A stretch of DNA of 64,000 nucleotides, taken from an uncultured Methanosarcinales archaeon. GTDB lineage: Archaea; Nanobdellota; Nanobdellia; Woesearchaeales; ARS49. Shown here in pieces: positions 160 to 25,572 of this stretch; the first letter of the stretch is position 1; every line of letters begins with the position of its first letter. Both the position numbers and the translations under genes were made by a program. Location of the stretch: assembly GCA_964353335.1 (NCBI GenBank), contig CAYGVI010000003.1, forward strand, positions 263,085-327,084, in the 5' to 3' direction. The notes below the pieces were generated by a model that saw only the letters and a program-made list of their open reading frames with translations, did no database searches and was not told the origin of the DNA.

Positions 160-1389
160 TCAGGATTCATTTGGGGATGTCAGCGCGAACTCTTCGGCGA
201 GAGTCTGAAGGATTTGGGGGGTTAGCTCGTCATTTGTTGAAACCGAGATTTCCCTTGTCCTCCCATAGCGTCCCTTTGAGATGACCTTGGCGTTTATGAT
301 GCCAAGCATGTCAAGCTCGCCGATGATGTCCGAGATTCTGCGTTGGGTAAGCGGCCTTAGGCCGACCCTGCTGCAGAGCGACTGGTAAAGGTCATACACC
401 TCCCCGGTGAAGACCTGTTCTTTTTTCTTTGAGCAAATTGAGTAAATTGAGTAGAGTGCAGCCTGATATTGCTGGGGCTGGGTCTTGATAATCTCAAAAA
501 TCCTGTCTGTTTCTATCTTGTGCTCTGCGTGGTCAAGGTGATCTGTTGTGACTTTTGACAAGCCTGCGCGTTCAGAGAGCTCTGCCGCGACCCTGAGAAG
601 CTCTATTGCCCTTCTCGCGTCTCCGTGGTCACGGGCTGCAAAAGCAGCGCATTTTTCTATCAGCCCAGGAGTTATCGCTCCGTGGACAAATGCCTCTTCT
701 GAGCGCTGCTTCAGTATGTCCTGCAGCTGCAGGGCATTATATGGCGGGAAGAAAAGCTCTTCCTGTGACAATGAGCTCTTGACTCTTGGGTCAAGCACGT
801 TTATGAAATTGGTGTTGTTTGAAATTCCGATGATTGAAATCTGGGCTTTCTTGAGCTCTGTGTTGATTCTTGTGAGATTGTAAAGCATGTCGTCGCCCTC
901 TTTGTCCATCAGCTGGTCAATTTCGTCAAGAACAAGGAGGATGATTTGCTTCTTTGTGTCAACAGCCCTTAGGAAGGCCGCATAAATTTCCTCTGTTGGA
1001 AGCCCTGTTATCGGCAGGTTTGCATTGAATTTTTCCCTTGTGATGTGGGCTATGAGCCTGTACTGGGTGTCTGCGACTTTCTTCATCTTGCAGTTTATGT
1101 AAACAGGCACTATTGGGACTTCCCTGCCTGAGGCTACTTTTGCCAGGTTTTCAACAGTGTGCTGTGCAACAAGCGTTTTTCCTGTTCCTGTCTTGCCATA
1201 AATAAAAACATTGGATGGTTTTTCACCGCGCAGGCTCGGAGCCAAAATTGTGGCCAGGCTGTTGATTTGCGCTTCCCTGTGCGGTATTGTGTCAGGATTG
1301 AAATTAGACTGAAGAACTGCCTTGTTCTTGAACATTGATTTTCTGTCCAAGTACTTCTCAAAAAAATCTACCAACCCCTTTTCCTGCAT
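160..1389 (-). CDS. cdc6: Orc1/Cdc6 replication initiator (AAA+ ATPase with C-terminal winged helix)
   Basis: 409 aa; Walker A 'GKTGTGKT', Walker B 'LVLDEIDQL', sensor motifs, C-terminal wH domain; sits next to an AT-rich intergenic region as is typical for archaeal origins. Confidence 0.9.
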   Translation of the reverse strand: MQEKGLVDFFEKYLDRKSMFKNKAVLQSNFNPDTIPHREAQINSLATILAPSLRGEKPSNVFIYGKTGTGKTLVAQHTVENLAKVASGREVPIVPVYINCKMKKVADTQYRLIAHITREKFNANLPITGLPTEEIYAAFLRAVDTKKQIILLVLDEIDQLMDKEGDDMLYNLTRINTELKKAQISIIGISNNTNFINVLDPRVKSSLSQEELFFPPYNALQLQDILKQRSEEAFVHGAITPGLIEKCAAFAARDHGDARRAIELLRVAAELSERAGLSKVTTDHLDHAEHKIETDRIFEIIKTQPQQYQAALYSIYSICSKKKEQVFTGEVYDLYQSLCSRVGLRPLTQRRISDIIGELDMLGIINAKVISKGRYGRTREISVSTNDELTPQILQTLAEEFALTSPNES

Positions 1390-1850
1390 CTCAAAGTTCC
1401 AAGTGAAACGCAGGTATTTATACTTTTCTTTTGGGTAGACTGTATATCACACCCCATCGTTTCTTATGGAGAAATGGAAGTATTGGTTGTGTTGTATGTA
1501 TGTATTGTATAGTAAAATATGTATATTATGTAGTATTTGTTCGTGAAGCGAGGTTTTATATATTATTTATTATCTTTCTATATAATAAATAATAATGTAT
1601 TTAAAAACAACTCAAAAACACATATTTAAAAATAACTACTACAATATACCTATTATAAACAAATAAAACACGCATTCGACGATAAAAATGATGCTTTCCA
1701 AAGGAACTGGTGGGGTCACCCTTCGCCGTCTTAATTGTTGCTACTCCTCGATACTAAAAAATCAAAAGCTTTATATAGCGCACACTCCTACTCAGGAGTA
1801 ACAAATCAAAGAATGGAACCACAAATAATTAACCAAGGGGGCTCTCAAAA
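1390..1850. other. Candidate replication origin (oriC): AT-rich unwinding region flanked by ORB-like boxes
   Basis: Intergenic region adjacent to orc1/cdc6. 'gTTCCAaGTGAAAC' at ~1400 and 'TTTCCAAAGGAACTGGTGGGG' at ~1698 resemble the archaeal ORB core TTCCAGTGGAAAC plus G-string. Between them lies a ~200 bp stretch >80% AT with short TGTAT/TATAT repeats (1490-1680). Confidence 0.5.
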
Positions 1851-2654
1851 ATGATAGTTCAAAGGGATTTTTTGAATAAACTCAAGGATTTCGGACTGAA
1901 CAGTTACGAAGCAAAATTGTGGACCGCACTTCTTTCCCGTGGTGTTGCAACCGCAGGAGAACTTTCTGACATTGCAAACGTGCCAAGATCGCGTTCTTAT
2001 GACGTTTTGGAGAGCCTTGAGAGGAAGGGATTTGTTGTGATGAAGCTCGGCAAGCCAATCAAGTATATTGCGATTCCTCCTGCTGAAGTCCTTGAAAGGG
2101 TCAAGAAAAATGTTTCTGAGGAAGCAGGCAAGCAGGTTCAGTTGATTGAAAGCTTGAAAGGAAGCGAAGTCCTTGGCGACTTGAACACCTTGCACAAGCA
2201 GGGTGTTGAGCTCGTCGACCCGGCTGATTTGACTGGCGCAGTAAAGGGCCGCTCAAACCTTAACAGCCACCTTGCAGCCATGATTAAGGGCGCTGAGAAG
2301 TCTGTATCGATAATTACAACCGAGCAGGGCATGGTCAGGAAGCTCGAGTCATTGGGTAATGTTCTTTCGAAGGCAAAAGAGCGCGGCGTTAGGATACGCA
2401 TTGCCGCGCCTGTCACAAAAGTTTCACAGGCAGCTGCAAAGGCATTGTCTGCGCACGCGCAAATCAGGCACATTGATGATGTCAAGGCAAGGTTTGTTGT
2501 TATTGACGGCAAGAGCGCCACAGTGATGGTCCTTGACGACGCAACCACACACCCAAGCTATGACTTCGGCGTCTGGGTTAACACAGAATTTTTTGCCAAA
2601 TCCTTTGAGAACATCTTCAACACACTCTGGGACAACGGCAAAGCTGTTAAGTAA
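1851..2654 (+). CDS. TrmB-family transcriptional regulator (wHTH N-terminus plus C-terminal effector domain), paralog 1
   Basis: 267 aa; N-terminal 'YEAKLWTALLSRGVATAGELSDIANVPRSRSYDVLESLERKGFV' typical of the TrmB wHTH; strong RBS 'aaggggg' upstream; close paralog at 24769. Confidence 0.75.
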   Translation: MIVQRDFLNKLKDFGLNSYEAKLWTALLSRGVATAGELSDIANVPRSRSYDVLESLERKGFVVMKLGKPIKYIAIPPAEVLERVKKNVSEEAGKQVQLIESLKGSEVLGDLNTLHKQGVELVDPADLTGAVKGRSNLNSHLAAMIKGAEKSVSIITTEQGMVRKLESLGNVLSKAKERGVRIRIAAPVTKVSQAAAKALSAHAQIRHIDDVKARFVVIDGKSATVMVLDDATTHPSYDFGVWVNTEFFAKSFENIFNTLWDNGKAVK

Positions 2655-2716: not shown

Positions 2717-2920
2717 ATGATTATGGCTGTCGATGATATGGTTTTGAGGATTACTCTTGCTGTTATTGTGGGAACGCTTGCGGCGATTGTTTACTGTATC
2801 CGTGTGCTTATCCTGATGGAGCGACGTGTCGCAAGGATTGAAGAGCACATTGACAACATTGCCCACAAGATTCTTGTTGAAGAGCAAACCATAGAAAAAT
2901 CAATGCGCAGGAAGCGCTGA
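2717..2920 (+). CDS. Small single-TM membrane protein (hypothetical)
   Basis: 67 aa; one hydrophobic helix 'ITLAVIVGTLAAIVYCIRVLIL' followed by a charged tail; RBS-like 'gaggtgg' upstream. Confidence 0.3.
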   Translation: MIMAVDDMVLRITLAVIVGTLAAIVYCIRVLILMERRVARIEEHIDNIAHKILVEEQTIEKSMRRKR

Positions 2921-2928
2921 GGATTTTC

Positions 2929-3645
2929 ATGGCTCGCAACCCTGTATCGAGCCTCGCACACGCATATTTGGATGCTTTTTCAGAGCTGCTGCACAGCTGC
3001 AAGCCTGAAAGCGCAGTTGCAAAATTCTCAAAGCTTGTTGCCGGCAAAAAGCTTGACGCTATCAGCTCAAATGCGCTTTATTTTGTCACGCACCCGGCTA
3101 GCGGGAAAAACCTGAAAGAAGAGCTTCTCTCGAGGGCAAACCAGGCAAAAAAAGTGCTTGACGAATGCACCGGCCAGATGTCAGACTTTGCAAAGAAAAG
3201 AATGGCTAGCAAGACAGTGGTTGTCCACCCGCTGAGCACATTCAGCGCCCTGCTTTTGCGGGATGCAAAGGAAGTCCGCTTCACAAATGCTGACAATGAG
3301 GCAATAAAATTGCTTCCTGAGACAGACATGGATGTCCACCACCCGCTTACATCTTACACGGCTTTGGAAAACGCAGACCTTTTACTTCTTGAGCCGAGCG
3401 CAATAACAGCCAAGGGGGTGTTTGTGGAGCGCGGCGGAAGGATTCTCGCAGAGCTTGCCAGAGCCCGTGGAATGCCTGTTTATGCGCTGGCAACATCCTG
3501 GCACACCTCGCCGAACTGGAAGCCTGGCCAGACTGATGAGCACGTTCCTCAGGAGTTTTTGACAGGCATTATTTCAGAGCACGGCATTTACGAGCACAAC
3601 GAATTTTTGGCAAAAGTTCAGAAAGCGTTTCCGTGGATGCTTTAA
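2929..3645 (+). CDS. eIF-2B alpha/beta/delta-family-like protein (short form)
   Basis: 238 aa; Rossmann-like core 'KTVVVHPLSTFSALL...LLLLEPSAITAKGVFVERGGRILAELARARGMPVYALATSWH' resembles the IF-2B/MtnA family; shorter than canonical aIF-2B. Confidence 0.4.
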   Translation: MARNPVSSLAHAYLDAFSELLHSCKPESAVAKFSKLVAGKKLDAISSNALYFVTHPASGKNLKEELLSRANQAKKVLDECTGQMSDFAKKRMASKTVVVHPLSTFSALLLRDAKEVRFTNADNEAIKLLPETDMDVHHPLTSYTALENADLLLLEPSAITAKGVFVERGGRILAELARARGMPVYALATSWHTSPNWKPGQTDEHVPQEFLTGIISEHGIYEHNEFLAKVQKAFPWML

Positions 3646-4157
3646 TTCTTTACCTTTAATTCCTTCTCTAATTTTTGGAGCTCCTTTTCAAGCTCTTTTA
3701 TCCTTGGCAGGTTGTCTTCCTGCTGGAGGATTTCGCCGCATTCAGGGCACTTGTACTCGAATTCTGTTGCCTGGTCAAAGTCAAGGCGTATGCACTTGTT
3801 TGCGCAGGCGAAGAAATTGGTTGATTTCTCGCGGTGAAGGCGCTCTTTCAGCCTTTCTGCTTTTGTCTTTTTCAGGTTCCTCGCAATCTCCTTTATCCTC
3901 TTGGGGTTGAAAGTCCAGTAATAGATGTACCAGCCCTTTTTCTTATCCTTCTTGCGTATGAATGTGACAAGGTGGTGGTCATAAAGCCTGTAAAGCATGT
4001 TTCTTGTGAGGTTTATTTCCTTCTTTATCGAGTCAGCCAGCTTAAATTCAGAAATGTTCTTCTTGTTCTTCAGCGACCTGACTAATGGCCACACATCAGG
4101 TCCTGCGACTTCTGCAATGACGTCCTGGAGAAGCTTGTCAGATGCTTTCATCTTCAT
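3642..4157 (-). CDS. tfe: Transcription factor E (TFE, TFIIE-alpha homolog)
   Basis: 171 aa; N-terminal winged helix, C-terminal zinc ribbon 'CANKC...CPECG', Lys/Glu-rich tail. Confidence 0.8.
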   Translation of the reverse strand: MKMKASDKLLQDVIAEVAGPDVWPLVRSLKNKKNISEFKLADSIKKEINLTRNMLYRLYDHHLVTFIRKKDKKKGWYIYYWTFNPKRIKEIARNLKKTKAERLKERLHREKSTNFFACANKCIRLDFDQATEFEYKCPECGEILQQEDNLPRIKELEKELQKLEKELKVKN

Positions 4158-4178
4158 TCAAAAACGTTTGCCTGCTGT

Positions 4179-4580
4179 TTATATACCTTTCGCTGCGCTG
4201 AGCAATGCGTCAAGCAGCCTTCCGCTTTCCAGTGCAAGCTTCTTGCTCACCACGAACTGGGAGACTGTGACGTCAAGCTCGTCAGGATGCAGGAATCTCC
4301 ATTCTTCGCGCGCAAAACGGACAGCGATGTATGGCTCTGCGCCTGTTATTTTGGCATACTCTTTCAGGTCGTCGACTTCCTCTTTTGTCAAATACTGGCT
4401 GTCACTTTTTGTGGTCTTGCATTCTATCGCGAGCATCCTGTTGTTTTTTGAGGCGAGAATGTCAGGGACAGGGTATTTTATGCTTCCTGAGCCGGCAACT
4501 CTTGACGCAGCCCATTCTTTTGCCCAGAACAAGTGCACCAATTCCCTTTCTGCGCCTGTTCCTTTTGTTTTTGCGCCCAT
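4179..4580 (-). CDS. hjc: Holliday junction resolvase Hjc
   Basis: 133 aa; 'GAERELVHLFWAKEWAASRVAGSG...PDILASKNNRMLAIECKTT' matches the Hjc nuclease fold and catalytic E..PD..ExK arrangement. Confidence 0.85.
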   Translation of the reverse strand: MGAKTKGTGAERELVHLFWAKEWAASRVAGSGSIKYPVPDILASKNNRMLAIECKTTKSDSQYLTKEEVDDLKEYAKITGAEPYIAVRFAREEWRFLHPDELDVTVSQFVVSKKLALESGRLLDALLSAAKGI

Positions 4581-4645
4581 ACTATTCTCGTTTGGCGCAA
4601 TGTTTATATATAATTTCCCTTCATTTGCAAAAATGGGGTGATTTT

Positions 4646-4867
4646 ATGGCGCAAACATCAAAAAGACTCATTCCTCTGGCTGCAATGGAGAAAATAATCA
4701 AGACTGCAGGCGCAGAGCGAGTTTCAGACAAGGCAAAGGCGGCTCTTAAGGAGGTTCTTGAGGAATATGCCGAGAAAATGGCCCAGAGCGCAGTCAAGCT
4801 TGCAATGCACGCAGGAAGAAAAACAGTCAAGGCAAGTGATATAAAACTGGCGGCAAAGCCTGCATGA
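4646..4867 (+). CDS. Archaeal histone (HMf-like histone fold)
   Basis: 73 aa from the internal ATG at 4646 (in frame with ORF 4331..4867); 'LPLAAMEKIIKTAGAERVSDKAKAALKEVLEEYAEKMAQSAVKLAMHAGRKTVKASDIKLAA' is a typical archaeal histone fold. Confidence 0.8.
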   Translation: MAQTSKRLIPLAAMEKIIKTAGAERVSDKAKAALKEVLEEYAEKMAQSAVKLAMHAGRKTVKASDIKLAAKPA

Positions 4868-4923
4868 GACCGCAGTTGAATGCAGGCCAGCCAACATCAG
4901 TTGGCGCTGCCGGCGTGAATCAA

Positions 4924-5532
4924 ATGAAAACTTTCCTCACTTTTATTTGCATACTTTTGCTTGTTTTTTCCATAGGCTGTTCAAAGCAGGAGGCAACAGC
5001 GCCTATTGTTGCGCCGGCAGAGCCGACAGCACCAGTAGAGCCTGCAGTGCCAGTTGCTCCTGTTCAAGAACCACAGCCAGCGGCACAACCCGCTGCGCCT
5101 GAGCCACAGCCGGCAGCGCAGCCAGCGCCAATCGCGACAAGTACTGCCGCCCTGATAAGCAACTGGTCTCTTGAAGAACAGTATATTTGGGATATAGTCA
5201 CAAACCAATGGGCTCCTGGAATATTCCTTGAAGATGGCACTGTAACCGCAATACCCCCTGAGCCGATTATAATGGAAATCCTGGGCGGAGCTAACACTGA
5301 CTGGTGTCCTGATGCAAAGCCGGAAAGCGGGGTAGAATATGTAACACTTGTCCCTGGCGGCTGCTGGAAAGTTGCAGGAAACACAATGACAGAAATTGAC
5401 CTGCCTCCTGAAGCAGGCACTGGCTCAATGAACTGGCAGATAAAGGACTCAAAGCTTGAAATGGACATCACTTTCAAGGAACCCGACGGCGCAGTAAACC
5501 GCAACAAGGCAGTCCTTTTGGCGTTGCGATAA
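4924..5532 (+). CDS. Secreted lipoprotein with Pro/Ala-rich linker (hypothetical)
   Basis: Start at internal ATG 4924 'MKTFLTFICILLLVFSIGC' (signal peptide plus lipobox-like Cys), then an (AP/EP/QP)n linker and a globular C-terminal domain. Confidence 0.5.
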   Translation: MKTFLTFICILLLVFSIGCSKQEATAPIVAPAEPTAPVEPAVPVAPVQEPQPAAQPAAPEPQPAAQPAPIATSTAALISNWSLEEQYIWDIVTNQWAPGIFLEDGTVTAIPPEPIIMEILGGANTDWCPDAKPESGVEYVTLVPGGCWKVAGNTMTEIDLPPEAGTGSMNWQIKDSKLEMDITFKEPDGAVNRNKAVLLALR

Positions 5533-6465: not shown

Positions 6466-7253
6466 AGTCCCACGCTCACAAAACGCCTTACTGCCTGCTT
6501 TGTGACAAAGTGTATGATTGTGTAAAGCACCACAACCCATGCAAGCTGAATGAGCAATGACTGCACAAGAGGCGCCCTTTGCAGGTAAATCAGGATTGGC
6601 ACTGACCTTGCGTATTCAAACGGCAAAAACTTTGAGACTGCCTGCACTCCTGCTGGGAAAAACGCAAGAGGAATAAAGCTTCCTCCAAGGAATGCGATTA
6701 GTGTCCTTCTGACGCGCCTTAATCCTGTAATGCGCCTCATCCAGAACGCGCCAAGCCCGAGCAGGTATGCCATTCCAAAGTAAATCAGGAAAGCAAGCAC
6801 AAGTGAAGCTACAAATGCCGCAAGGTTTGCTATCGGAGCCATTGGCAGTCCGAAGAACAAAAGCCCGATCAGGAACACAGGAATCATCTGGCTCACAATA
6901 TTGTACGCGTTTATCCCCATTTCAAAGCTTAAATACCAGGGAGTGAGCCCTATTGGTTTCAGCATTCCCCTCGCCATCCAGCCATTAATCAGGTCGCTTT
7001 CCATCCACTTGTCAACCTCAGACCATGTTACAAATCCAACTATCATGGAGAGTACGTAATAGCTTACCATGTCAGGAAAAGTGAATCCGCGAATCATAGG
7101 CGCGCCTGTGTAAGCAAAAACAGATTTCCACAAAAAGTAATAGATGACCAGCGAGATTGGAGTTGTGATTACCGAAGCTATTGCCTCCCAGCGGTAGCGC
7201 GTGGCTATCTTGATTCCGCTGTTCGCCAGTCCGATATGGTGGTGTATGTTCAT
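6462..7253 (-). CDS. ABC-2 type transporter permease
   Basis: 263 aa polytopic membrane protein; start overlaps the ATPase stop. Confidence 0.6.
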   Translation of the reverse strand: MNIHHHIGLANSGIKIATRYRWEAIASVITTPISLVIYYFLWKSVFAYTGAPMIRGFTFPDMVSYYVLSMIVGFVTWSEVDKWMESDLINGWMARGMLKPIGLTPWYLSFEMGINAYNIVSQMIPVFLIGLLFFGLPMAPIANLAAFVASLVLAFLIYFGMAYLLGLGAFWMRRITGLRRVRRTLIAFLGGSFIPLAFFPAGVQAVSKFLPFEYARSVPILIYLQRAPLVQSLLIQLAWVVVLYTIIHFVTKQAVRRFVSVGL

Positions 7254-8391: not shown

Positions 8392-9288
8392 TCACAGCTT
8401 TATCTTCATCAAGTCCTTTGCTGCCTGCGTGTTATCAAAGATGTCCCTTGCATCCTGTTCGAGTTCTGTGATATCTTTGTACCTTGCTGAGAAGTGGATT
8501 AGTATGAGCTTTTTTGCGTTTGCCTGCGATGCGAGCTGTGCTGCTTCTTTTGCAGTCATGTGCGCGTACTGGTGCGCTTCGTCTGTGCGCTCGCTTGTGT
8601 AAGTTGATTCGCACATAACAATGTCAGCGTTTTCAGCGAGCTTTTGCGCCCCTGAGCACATTACTGAATCTGTTATGTATGCCACTTTCTTTCCTGGAAC
8701 TACCTCGCTGACCATATCAGGAGTAATCTTCTTTCCATTGACTGTCACAACATTGCCTTCCTGCAGTTTTCCAACCAGCGGCCCAAGAGGCACGCCGTGT
8801 TTCTTGAGCAGCTTGACATCCATTTTGCGCGTGTCATTCTCAATAAATGCGTATCCGACTGTGGGAACGCTGTGCTTTAATGGCGCGCACTCTACGCGGA
8901 AGTCATCTGTTTCAAGGATTGTTCCTGACTTGACCTCATGTACGCGGATGTCAATGTTTTTTGCGTACTCATACGCGCTGAAAATGTGCCCAAGGCGTTC
9001 TTTTGTGCCTGCAGGACCGTAAATTTCCATGGTTCCTGAATAATTGTAAAGTGTGAGCCCAAGGCTGAAAAGCAAACCAGGCAGTCCGATGACATGGTCT
9101 CCGTGCCAGTGAGTTATGAATATCCTTGTGACCTTTGACAGCGGTATTCCTGCTATTTTCATCTGCCTTTGCGTGCCTTCTCCGCAGTCAAACAGCAATC
9201 CCTCTGCCTTGTACTTCAAAAACACTGAAAGGACATTTCTCTCCTTGGTCGGCATTGAGCCTGCTGTTCCCAAAATTGTTATTTCCAT
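8392..9288 (-). CDS. rnz: Ribonuclease Z (tRNA 3' endonuclease, metallo-beta-lactamase fold)
   Basis: 298 aa; 'ITHWHGDH' zinc motif; 'MEITILGTAGSMPT' N-terminus typical of RNase Z. Confidence 0.85.
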   Translation of the reverse strand: MEITILGTAGSMPTKERNVLSVFLKYKAEGLLFDCGEGTQRQMKIAGIPLSKVTRIFITHWHGDHVIGLPGLLFSLGLTLYNYSGTMEIYGPAGTKERLGHIFSAYEYAKNIDIRVHEVKSGTILETDDFRVECAPLKHSVPTVGYAFIENDTRKMDVKLLKKHGVPLGPLVGKLQEGNVVTVNGKKITPDMVSEVVPGKKVAYITDSVMCSGAQKLAENADIVMCESTYTSERTDEAHQYAHMTAKEAAQLASQANAKKLILIHFSARYKDITELEQDARDIFDNTQAAKDLMKIKL

Positions 9289-24607: not shown

Positions 24608-24768
24608 TGCATAATCTGATTCTCGACCACAACAATCATTATATACAAGCACCCCAAATTGAGTACTAGGGAGTAAATATCCCCCTTGTGCGGTGGTTAA
24701 AATCGTAACATTTTAATACCCGCCTTGATTTACCCCAGTCACATAACAACAAAAGGGGGGAGGTAAGT

Positions 24769-25572
24769 ATGATTGTCAAAGAAGAATTTTTGAGCAAGCT
24801 CCGTCGATATTTCTCATTGAACCTCTATGAGGTCAAGATTTGGACGGCGCTTCTTTCCCGTGGTGTTGCAACCGCAGGGGAGCTTTCTGACATTGCAAAC
24901 GTTCCAAGGTCAAGGAGCTATGACGTCCTTGAGAGCCTTGAGCGCAAGGGATTTGTTATAATGAAGCTCGGCAAGCCAATCAAGTACATTGCGGTTCCAC
25001 CGCAGGAAGTGCTTGAGCGTGTCAAGAAGAACATGAAAGAAGAGGCAGACGAAAAAGTCAAGCGCCTCGAGCAGCTCAAAACAACAGATGTCCTCAACGA
25101 GCTTAACCTGCTCCACACGCAGGGAATCGAGCTTATCGAGCCTGCAGACCTTTCAGGTTCGCTGCGCGGACGGCACAACCTCTACTCGCACCTCGAGCTT
25201 ACCATCAGGAACGCCGAGAAGAGCGTGACCATAATGACAACCTCACAGGGCTTCCTCAGGAAAGTTGAAGGCCTGAAGCCGGTCTTTGAGAAGCTGAAGC
25301 GAAAGGGAGTCAAGGTCCGCATCGCAGCCCCGCTGACAAAGGAGACAAAGGATGCATTGAAGGACGTCTCTGAAGTCGCAGAGGTCAGGCACACTGATTC
25401 CAAGGCAAGGTTTGTCGTTGTTGACGGCAAAGACATCGTGTTCATGATTCTGGACGACAAGGAAGTCCACCCGACGTATGACGTCGGAATATGGGTCAAC
25501 ACGCCGTTCTTCGCGTCCGCAGTAGAGAACCTGTTCGACACTGCCTGGAAGAACATGAAGCCAGGCAAGTAA
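24769..25572 (+). CDS. TrmB-family transcriptional regulator, paralog 2
   Basis: 267 aa; a 38-aa stretch identical to the 1851..2654 protein in the wHTH; conserved C-terminal 'ARFVV(I/V)DGK...HP(S/T)YD.G.WVNT.FFA'; RBS 'aagggggg aggt'. Confidence 0.75.
   Translation: MIVKEEFLSKLRRYFSLNLYEVKIWTALLSRGVATAGELSDIANVPRSRSYDVLESLERKGFVIMKLGKPIKYIAVPPQEVLERVKKNMKEEADEKVKRLEQLKTTDVLNELNLLHTQGIELIEPADLSGSLRGRHNLYSHLELTIRNAEKSVTIMTTSQGFLRKVEGLKPVFEKLKRKGVKVRIAAPLTKETKDALKDVSEVAEVRHTDSKARFVVVDGKDIVFMILDDKEVHPTYDVGIWVNTPFFASAVENLFDTAWKNMKPGK

Follow-up and report, generated by a model that had tools for sequence, protein, structure and literature searches.

A predicted Orc1-1/ORB-type chromosomal replication origin beside orc1/cdc6 in a DPANN archaeon

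The orc1–trmB Spacer

The 64-kb stretch of contig CAYGVI010000003.1 analyzed here (the window) contains, close to its left end, a spacer at 1390-1850 that separates two divergent genes, orc1/cdc6 on the minus strand and a TrmB-family gene on the plus strand. The spacer had been put forward in an earlier note as a candidate chromosomal replication origin (oriC), in which two boxes resembling the archaeal Origin Recognition Box (ORB) flank an AT-rich duplex unwinding element (DUE). Both flanking genes were identified by Pfam: the open reading frame at 160-1389 is Orc1/Cdc6, as the earlier note had said, and the spacer ends at the TrmB-family gene. The following features, which include the transcription factor B recognition element (BRE) of the orc1 promoter, make up the predicted origin and its immediate borders.

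160-1389, minus strand: orc1/cdc6, 409 residues, Orc1-1 type (Pfam Cdc6_C, 9e-29; Cdc6_lid, 9e-23; AAA domains)
1396-1409, plus strand: mini-ORB, GTTCCAAGTGAAAC, lacking a G-string, located between TATA box and start codon of orc1
1415-1431, minus strand: orc1 core promoter, with TATA box TATAAATA at 1415-1422 and BRE-like AAAGAAAAG at 1423-1431
1449-1471, minus strand: proximal full ORB, CTCCATAAGAAACGATGGGGTGT, dyad end toward the DUE and G-string toward orc1
1472-1695, no strand: DUE, 224 bp between the inverted ORBs, core at 1495-1675
1696-1718, plus strand: distal full ORB, TTCCAAAGGAACTGGTGGGGTCA, dyad end toward the DUE and G-string away from it, inverted partner of 1449-1471
1851-2654, plus strand: trmB-like gene, TrmB-family regulator (PF01978, 7e-21)

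An Initiator of the Orc1-1 Class

The closest solved structures to the orc1/cdc6 product are Sulfolobus solfataricus Orc1-1 (2qby_A, 1e-103) and Aeropyrum pernix ORC1 (2v1u_A, 4.5e-100), the two Orc1 proteins crystallized on ORB DNA; Orc1-3 is a much weaker match, at 7.5e-46. The translation shows a Walker A motif (GKTGTGKT) and a Walker B motif (DEID). In Orc1-1, affinity and specificity for the ORB are dominated by R341 of the helix-turn-helix, which contacts a base, and R365 of the wing (Dueber et al., PMC3089459). When the 11-residue offset of the crystallized chain is taken into account, these residues align with R350 (helix-turn-helix) and R374 (wing) of the protein encoded here, which sit in conserved TQRR and GRYG motifs, respectively. 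Judged by its sequence, the protein is an initiator of the Orc1-1 class in which the AAA+ module and the winged-helix domain are intact. In 206 complete Nanobdellota genomes, ORC1/Cdc6 has been described as a core gene present in one copy (bioRxiv 10.64898/2026.05.13.725050), and a tblastn search of the 64 kb found no second orc1 paralog.

An Inverted Pair of Full ORBs Encloses the DUE

The two boxes quoted in the earlier note exist, GTTCCAAGTGAAAC at 1396-1409 and TTTCCAAAGGAACTGGTGGGG at 1695-1715, and both lie on the plus strand in the same orientation, as described. They do not form the pair that flanks the DUE. The strongest ORB of the locus, at 1449-1471 on the minus strand, is absent from that note and outranks both quoted boxes; together with the box at 1696-1718 on the plus strand, it constitutes the true flanking pair, which is inverted. 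The pair is also recovered by a repeat search as a 20-nt inverted repeat (I1), with arms at 1451-1470 (TCCATAAGAAACGATGGGGT on the minus strand) and 1697-1716 (TCCAAAGGAACTGGTGGGGT on the plus strand). In the proximal ORB the dyad end lies at 1470-1471 and the G-string at 1451-1455, and in the distal ORB these elements occupy 1696 and 1712-1716. The dyads of both boxes thus adjoin the AT-rich tract, with the G-strings pointing outward and 224 bp enclosed.

The boxes were scored with a 23-nt weight matrix whose training set was confined to the boxes, proximal and distal, of five further species (loci L004-L008), and the scores were compared with 200 first-order Markov simulations of 64 kb, in which the mean maximum was 13.8 bits and the overall maximum 24.4 bits. 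The proximal ORB reaches 28.7 bits, above every simulated sequence. The distal ORB had been described as an extended ORB with a G-string, and all five of its G-string positions do match the consensus; taken alone, however, it scores 14.6 bits, the level expected by chance in a scan of 64 kb. No other match of at least 15 bits was found in the 64 kb, and the window therefore holds no second ORB array. The earlier note had counted other orc1 paralogs with better ORB arrays as evidence against an origin here, and within the 64 kb there are none.

The ORB consensus combines a TTCCA-N3-GAAAC dyad core with a 3' G-string. The clade consensus derived in this analysis, nTCCAnAnGAAACnnnGGGGT, agrees with published ORB consensus sequences, namely CTTCCAGTGGAAACGAAAGGGGT for Archaea and GTTCCAGTGGAAATGG-AGGGGTA for Methanomassiliicoccales (PMC4153887), and GTTCCAGTGGAAAC-AAA----GGGGG for euryarchaea (PMC1868953). 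Aligned to the published consensus sequences, the ORBs score 14-16 over 22-24 columns with gap penalties included, and all five G-string positions (GGGGT) as well as the TCCA/GAA core match.

The DNA enclosed by the two ORBs is extreme in composition. The stretch of about 200 bp described previously as AT-rich is 79.6% AT over 1490-1680 and 81.2% AT over 1495-1675, far beyond the other intergenic regions of the window. Measured in 100-nt windows, GC reaches its lowest value anywhere in the 64 kb, 0.13, at 1558-1657, about 6 standard deviations under the mean of 0.483 (standard deviation 0.057); outside this spacer the lowest value is 0.30. Judged by composition, 1472-1695 contains the least stable duplex of the 64 kb. 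The TGTAT, TATAT and AATAA words that had been listed as repeats are present, but as repeats they amount to low-complexity AT sequence, and Tandem Repeats Finder reported a single weak 9-nt array (1499-1537, score 32). At the center of the DUE, two 13-nt arms composed only of A and T, TATTATTTATTAT / ATAATAAATAATA, form a perfect inverted repeat around an 8-nt loop (1561-1594); the repeat has no obvious conservation among relatives, and low complexity is a plausible source of it.

The Layout Is Conserved across DPANN Lineages

Conservation was assessed at two depths. A scan of one genome per species yielded 80 loci with 50-99% Orc1 identity from metagenome-assembled genomes (MAGs) of Woesearchaeota, Nanoarchaeia, Nanohaloarchaeota, Aenigmatarchaeota and Pacearchaeota. 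A multiple alignment (A1) compared the spacer with those of six relatives at 81-99% Orc1 identity. In A1, conserved islands stand on a diverged background: the distal ORB, the proximal ORB, the orc1 BRE/TATA pair and the TTTCAnnTGGAA core of the mini-ORB, and further toward trmB a 45-nt block by the trmB TATA box and a G-rich element before the trmB start codon. Even in the relatives at 81-86% Orc1 identity, in which the spacer has diverged, the three ORB cores and the promoters are kept. On the orc1 strand, every aligned relative has the distal ORB as ACCCCnnnnnTTTCnTnTGGAA. The sequence of the DUE is poorly conserved in relatives and its AT-richness is kept, with a minimum GC of 0.06-0.13.

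In many lineages of the larger set, the proximal ORB is found at -78 to -84 relative to the orc1 start. With a cut-off of 16 bits and the 74 loci outside the matrix training set, 149 ORB matches were found in 74.6 kb upstream of orc1, compared to 7 in 507.6 kb elsewhere, an enrichment of about 145-fold. The same inverted pair, with a minus-strand ORB in the distal and a plus-strand ORB in the proximal position, occurs in 46 of the 61 loci with at least 700 nt upstream, and its interior is AT-rich (at least 10 GC points under the locus average) in 41 of those 46.

These comparisons bear on one alternative, that the spacer is an ordinary AT-rich divergent promoter region in which TTCC...GAAA words occur fortuitously. 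The chance-level score of the distal box and the shortness of the mini-ORB core are what such a coincidence would predict. The score of the proximal ORB is not, nor is the distribution of the exact core TCCANNNGAAAC, whose only two matches in the 64 kb both fall in the spacer (1398 on the plus strand, 1459 on the minus strand), nor are the enrichment upstream of orc1 in independent genomes and the depth of the GC minimum. Chance resemblance is effectively refuted by the conservation in A1, the enrichment in independent loci and the matrix score, and its probability is close to nil.

Several variations on the layout were observed among the relatives. Nanohaloarchaeal loci (L048, L051, L052, L054-L058, L061, L064, L065, L068, L072, L078 and L080) carry three full ORBs upstream of orc1 in the order plus, minus, plus, at about -130, -250 and -480 to -590, and their inter-ORB regions are much less AT-rich (GC 0.25-0.40). 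In two MAGs labelled "uncultured archaeon" (L075, about 9000-9070; L079, about 5120-5210), two strong same-strand ORB matches of up to 30.7 bits lie 61 nt apart, about 5 kb (5.0 kb) downstream of the orc1 start; they could be a second ORB cluster past the polD genes. DPANN-type orc1 loci were also encountered in bins labelled Saccharibacteria, Colwellia polaris and Methanosarcinales (L074, L078 and many others), probably through mis-binning of contigs or erroneous taxonomic labels of public MAGs.

Comparison with Known Archaeal Origins

An archaeal origin has been defined in review as an AT-rich DUE flanked by ORBs beside orc1/cdc6 (PMC5333045). One example is oriC1 of Sulfolobus, where ORB2 and ORB3 are inverted around the DUE, each is essential, each is bound by one Orc1-1 monomer with defined polarity, and the two jointly direct MCM onto the DNA between them (PMC12141716); the active form of Orc1-1 is the ATP-bound one (PMC3607249). 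The locus described here resembles oriC1 of Sulfolobus/Saccharolobus and of Aeropyrum pernix, in that their initiators are its closest counterparts and inverted full ORBs surround a DUE beside orc1-1. As in the Sulfolobus oriC1 ORBs, the ORB in the window consists of a dyad core plus a G-string. The differences concern spacing and accessory elements. The inter-ORB distance is 224 bp here, whereas the whole ORB3-DUE-ORB2 region of S. islandicus measures about 130 bp, and the spacer between GAAAC and GGGGT is 3 nt here compared to 4 nt in the "Archaea consensus." Unlike in Sulfolobus, C2/C3 sites are missing from the window, as is any additional Orc1 paralog. The crenarchaeal ucm element was not recognizable in a comparison limited to a 12-bp probe, and the relatives carry a different, palindromic motif in the DUE.

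Similarities extend to the euryarchaea. Pyrococcus has ORB clusters in oriC and inside dp1 that lie on either side of cdc6/orc1, all within a single 5-kb region, and it has many mini-ORBs as well (PMC1904270). The order oriC-orc1/cdc6-dp1-dp2 and the arrangement of long ORBs as an inverted repeat plus a mini-ORB are shared with Pyrococcus and other Thermococcales. The Pyrococcus ORBs are longer, however, at 34 bp with GAAATGAAACTCT before the G-string, and are accompanied by many 13-bp mini-ORBs, whereas a single mini-ORB is present here. The second ORB cluster inside dp1 of the Thermococcales oriC is also absent: a scan of 6 kb to the left of the window start found no ORB or mini-ORB cluster in dp1, and its sole match, TTCATCAGAAA at -2024, is degenerate and lacks TCCA. 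In ORB length and spacing, the locus also agrees with the origins of Methanomassiliicoccales, which are computational predictions. There the two properties are nearly identical to those found here, the distal box matches 16 of the 22 positions of the consensus from that order, and the clade consensus has its spacing. Inverted ORBs are likewise paired beside orc1/cdc6.1 (PMC4153887), although in Methanomassiliicoccales they lie both downstream and upstream of orc1, with short spacings of 39-256 bp.

A Model for Origin Function and Points That Weigh against It

Based on these data, 1396-1718 is very probably, by structure and descent, the chromosomal oriC, of the Orc1-1/ORB type, of a DPANN archaeon (Woesearchaeota/Nanobdellota) that is represented solely by metagenomic sequence. 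The proposal of a candidate oriC beside orc1 is thereby upheld, since an Orc1-1-type initiator, boxes matching the ORB consensus, an extreme DUE and a layout kept in dozens of relatives all coincide. The conserved archaeal architecture that the earlier note saw in the spacer is present as ORB-DUE-ORB, although the anatomy of the boxes and the right boundary had been drawn incorrectly. From this structure we infer origin activity. By analogy with Sulfolobus oriC1 and its ORB3-DUE-ORB2 arrangement, one ATP-bound Orc1 monomer would bind each ORB with fixed polarity, and the two monomers would recruit MCM hexamers onto the DUE with their N-terminal tiers facing each other. The DUE would then melt, and replication would run bidirectionally.

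Several observations weigh against such a model. The distal ORB, beside its chance-level score, deviates from the clade consensus, with GAACT in place of GAAAC. What makes it credible is solely its placement, 224 bp away from the strong box, inverted relative to it and at a site where every relative has an ORB. Nor is a replication-related switch in base composition apparent at the site. Skew was computed cumulatively and strand-separated over the window plus 9.8 kb to its left, an extension obtained by matching the exact Orc1 protein to Logan contigs. In these 74 kb, of which 10 kb are on the left side, the GC skew shows neither a sign change nor a V at the site; the cumulative skew climbs over the right 62 kb and does not fall across the left 10 kb. 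The strand-separated, replication-related component is near zero, at about +0.009 on the right and +0.047 on the left (10 kb). Because the left flank comprises only 10 kb, the skew is uninformative rather than contrary. Finally, ORB-bearing origins can be dispensable or unused, as has been reported for Thermococcus kodakarensis (PMC5663688).

The last point leads to an alternative in which the site is an origin by descent but silent or dispensable, with replication starting elsewhere or by recombination, as in T. kodakarensis. In addition to the lack of a visible local skew switch, such a scenario would be in line with accounts that ORB-bearing oriC regions are not always used (PMC5663688, PMC11005403). 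The skew test has no power here, however, and Nanobdellota have kept ORC1 as a core gene in one copy. DPANN lineages have preserved the ORBs along with their spacing and orientation, and this preservation speaks for ongoing selection. A silent origin therefore appears unlikely.

To our knowledge, no DPANN archaeal origin has been mapped experimentally. A literature search found no paper joining Woesearchaeota with an origin or ORB analysis; Nanobdellota genomes have been rotated to orc1 by convention, without analysis of ORBs or origins (bioRxiv 10.64898/2026.05.13.725050). The locus and its 80 relatives show that reduced, host-dependent lineages share the ORB-DUE-ORB design of Crenarchaeota and Euryarchaeota, its polarity and the linkage of orc1 to polD. 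More practically, coverage-based growth estimates and genome rotation gain a precise reference point, and Orc1 binding tests gain defined oligonucleotides. The result is sound but ordinary, in that a canonical Orc1-1/ORB origin is predicted in a lineage with uncharacterized origins and the picture of archaeal replication initiation is unchanged.

A Mini-ORB in the orc1 Promoter

The box near 1400 had been interpreted as one of the ORBs flanking the DUE. Instead, it is a mini-ORB without a G-string inside the orc1 core promoter. On the strand of orc1, the elements run AAAGAAAAG-TATAAATA-CCTGC-GTTTCACTTGGAAC-TTTGAG-ATG, with the start codon at 1389; the positions at which a G-string would be found extend into the TATA box. 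The BRE/TATA pair of orc1 in A1 is AAAGAAAAG-nATAAATAC, and AAGAAAAnnATAAATAC is invariant in this promoter. The mini-ORB core, just before the ATG, is kept in all aligned relatives, and it occurs antisense near the orc1 start codon in 40 of 69 independent loci, compared to a background of 0.013 per 140 nt.

The usual distance from the TATA box to the transcription start in archaea is about 26 nt. With this spacing, orc1 transcription is predicted to start 2-3 nt before the ATG, so the orc1 mRNA would be leaderless and the mini-ORB would occupy about -4 to -17. Its position between TATA box and start codon suggests an autoregulatory mini-ORB, and 1396-1409 is probably an Orc1 operator. Orc1 bound there would occlude the transcription machinery, and synthesis of the initiator would be self-limiting. 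A literature search found no direct report of such Orc1 autoregulation. The proximal ORB, fixed at -81 from the start codon directly upstream of the BRE, may in addition couple origin occupancy to orc1 transcription.

Given these relationships, it is conceivable that the boxes serve only as Orc1 operators for the divergent orc1 and trmB-like promoters, with the AT tract as a promoter spacer. The mini-ORB within the orc1 promoter and the fixed distance of the proximal ORB would fit that role, and some Orc1 paralogs are pure transcription regulators, Orc1-2 being one example (PMC9738581). On the other hand, neither promoter falls within the inverted pair (orc1 at 1415-1431, trmB at 1763-1777), which leaves the 224-bp tract of about 80% AT with no promoter role. 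The ORB-DUE-ORB layout also persists at loci whose upstream neighbor is not trmB, and the protein is of the initiator (Orc1-1) type. A purely regulatory function is accordingly quite improbable.

The trmB Side of the Spacer

The right 120 bp of the interval proposed as the origin in the earlier note (1731-1850) belong to the promoter and operator of the trmB-like gene.

1735-1800, plus strand: trmB-like promoter/operator region, with block TTGCTACTCCTCGATACTAAAAA, BRE CAAAAG at 1763-1768, TATA box TTTATATA at 1770-1777 and palindrome TACTCAGGAGTA at 1789-1800

The segment at 1735-1778 is the most conserved block of the spacer in A1, nearly invariant over about 45 nt and unique in the window. 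Its 3' end is a BRE/TATA pair directed toward trmB (CAAAAG-CTTTATATA here, CGAAAAG-CTTTAAATA in L017), and TACTCAGGAGTA follows directly downstream, at the predicted trmB transcription start. In the 64 kb, TACTNRGGAGTA occurs at only two positions, 1789 and 24664 (24664-24675), each upstream of a trmB paralog; the second paralog, at 24769-25569, is 63% identical to the gene at 1851-2654. The TACT-N4-AGTA palindrome is probably an autoregulatory operator of the TrmB family. The block at 1735-1778 was considered as an additional origin element and rejected, because its BRE/TATA pair faces trmB and the palindrome downstream of it recurs only at the trmB paralog. A scan of 1300-1950 against Rfam at E<=1 matched no family, and the conserved blocks are therefore not explained by a known noncoding RNA.

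The trmB-like gene is the divergent neighbor of orc1 in a subset of Woesearchaeota only (L003-L009, L013, L015-L017, L025 and L032), down to about 58% Orc1 identity. A conserved AAGGGGGCT lies 9-10 nt before its start codon (1837-1841; A1 columns about 101-109). This element looks like an unusual G-run ribosome-binding site, unlike the situation at orc1, which is apparently leaderless.

A Palindrome inside the DUE of Related Loci

In many Woesearchaeota-like relatives (loci L008-L044), the DUE contains a 14-bp palindrome, TTTCWATATWGAAA, between the inverted ORBs. Of 36 Woesearchaeota-like loci, 21 have a single strict copy upstream of orc1, compared to an average of 0.02 loci after local shuffling; another 278 kb of sequence elsewhere yielded 4 copies. 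Nanohaloarchaeal and aenigmatarchaeal loci lack the palindrome. The window holds a degenerate counterpart.

1575-1588, no strand: degenerate copy of the palindrome, TTTCTATATAATAA, with two mismatches, aligned in A1 with the palindrome of L006-L008

By itself, the copy in the window is at chance level. That the palindrome is a site of the neighboring TrmB-like protein is unlikely, given that it occurs without an adjacent trmB and that the motifs differ. In position, it recalls ucm of Sulfolobus, an element that the nucleoid protein UBP binds and that oriC1 requires in order to fire (PMC12141716). The 12-bp ucm probe ATTATACAAAAG, the only ucm sequence compared, is not palindromic and has no convincing match to the palindrome or the DUE, so the analogy is one of position only. 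Tentatively, origins of the Woesearchaeota type may carry a third cis element, a mid-DUE palindrome that would bind a dimeric origin factor; the copy in the window would be partly decayed. If so, accessory origin factors would be a general, lineage-specific component of archaeal origins rather than a crenarchaeal peculiarity.

Gene Neighborhood

To the left of the window, the polD genes follow orc1, DP1 first and then DP2, on the contig that extends past the window edge (L001).

L001, 10001-11230: orc1
L001, 11220-12737: DP1 (DNA_pol_E_B/Metallophos)
L001, 12774-16307: DP2 (PolC_DP2)

Transcription of orc1-DP1-DP2 points away from the predicted origin. To its right, the plus strand carries 44 of 64 genes and 72% of coding bases, and in the left 10 kb the minus strand carries 76% of coding bases. 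Gene orientation thus diverges from the site, which lends the origin weak support.

Many archaeal orc1/cdc6-linked origins derive from captured extrachromosomal elements, and for this reason the site could be the origin of an integrated plasmid or virus that carries its own orc1. The flanks, however, are housekeeping genes (DP1, DP2, TFE-alpha, Hjc, histone, tRNA splicing endonuclease and FEN1-like XPG), the orc1-polD synteny and the ORB layout are common to several phyla, and the window has no compositional break other than the DUE. The probability of an integrated element is accordingly minute, and the flanks agree with a chromosomal origin.

Information-processing genes cluster near the predicted origin, both at 2717-5532 and on L001. 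Three of those to the right of the spacer are the following.

3642-4157: TFE-alpha
4179-4580: Hjc resolvase
About 4640-4867: histone-fold protein

The tRNA splicing endonuclease and the FEN1-like XPG nuclease are located on L001, past window position 6540.

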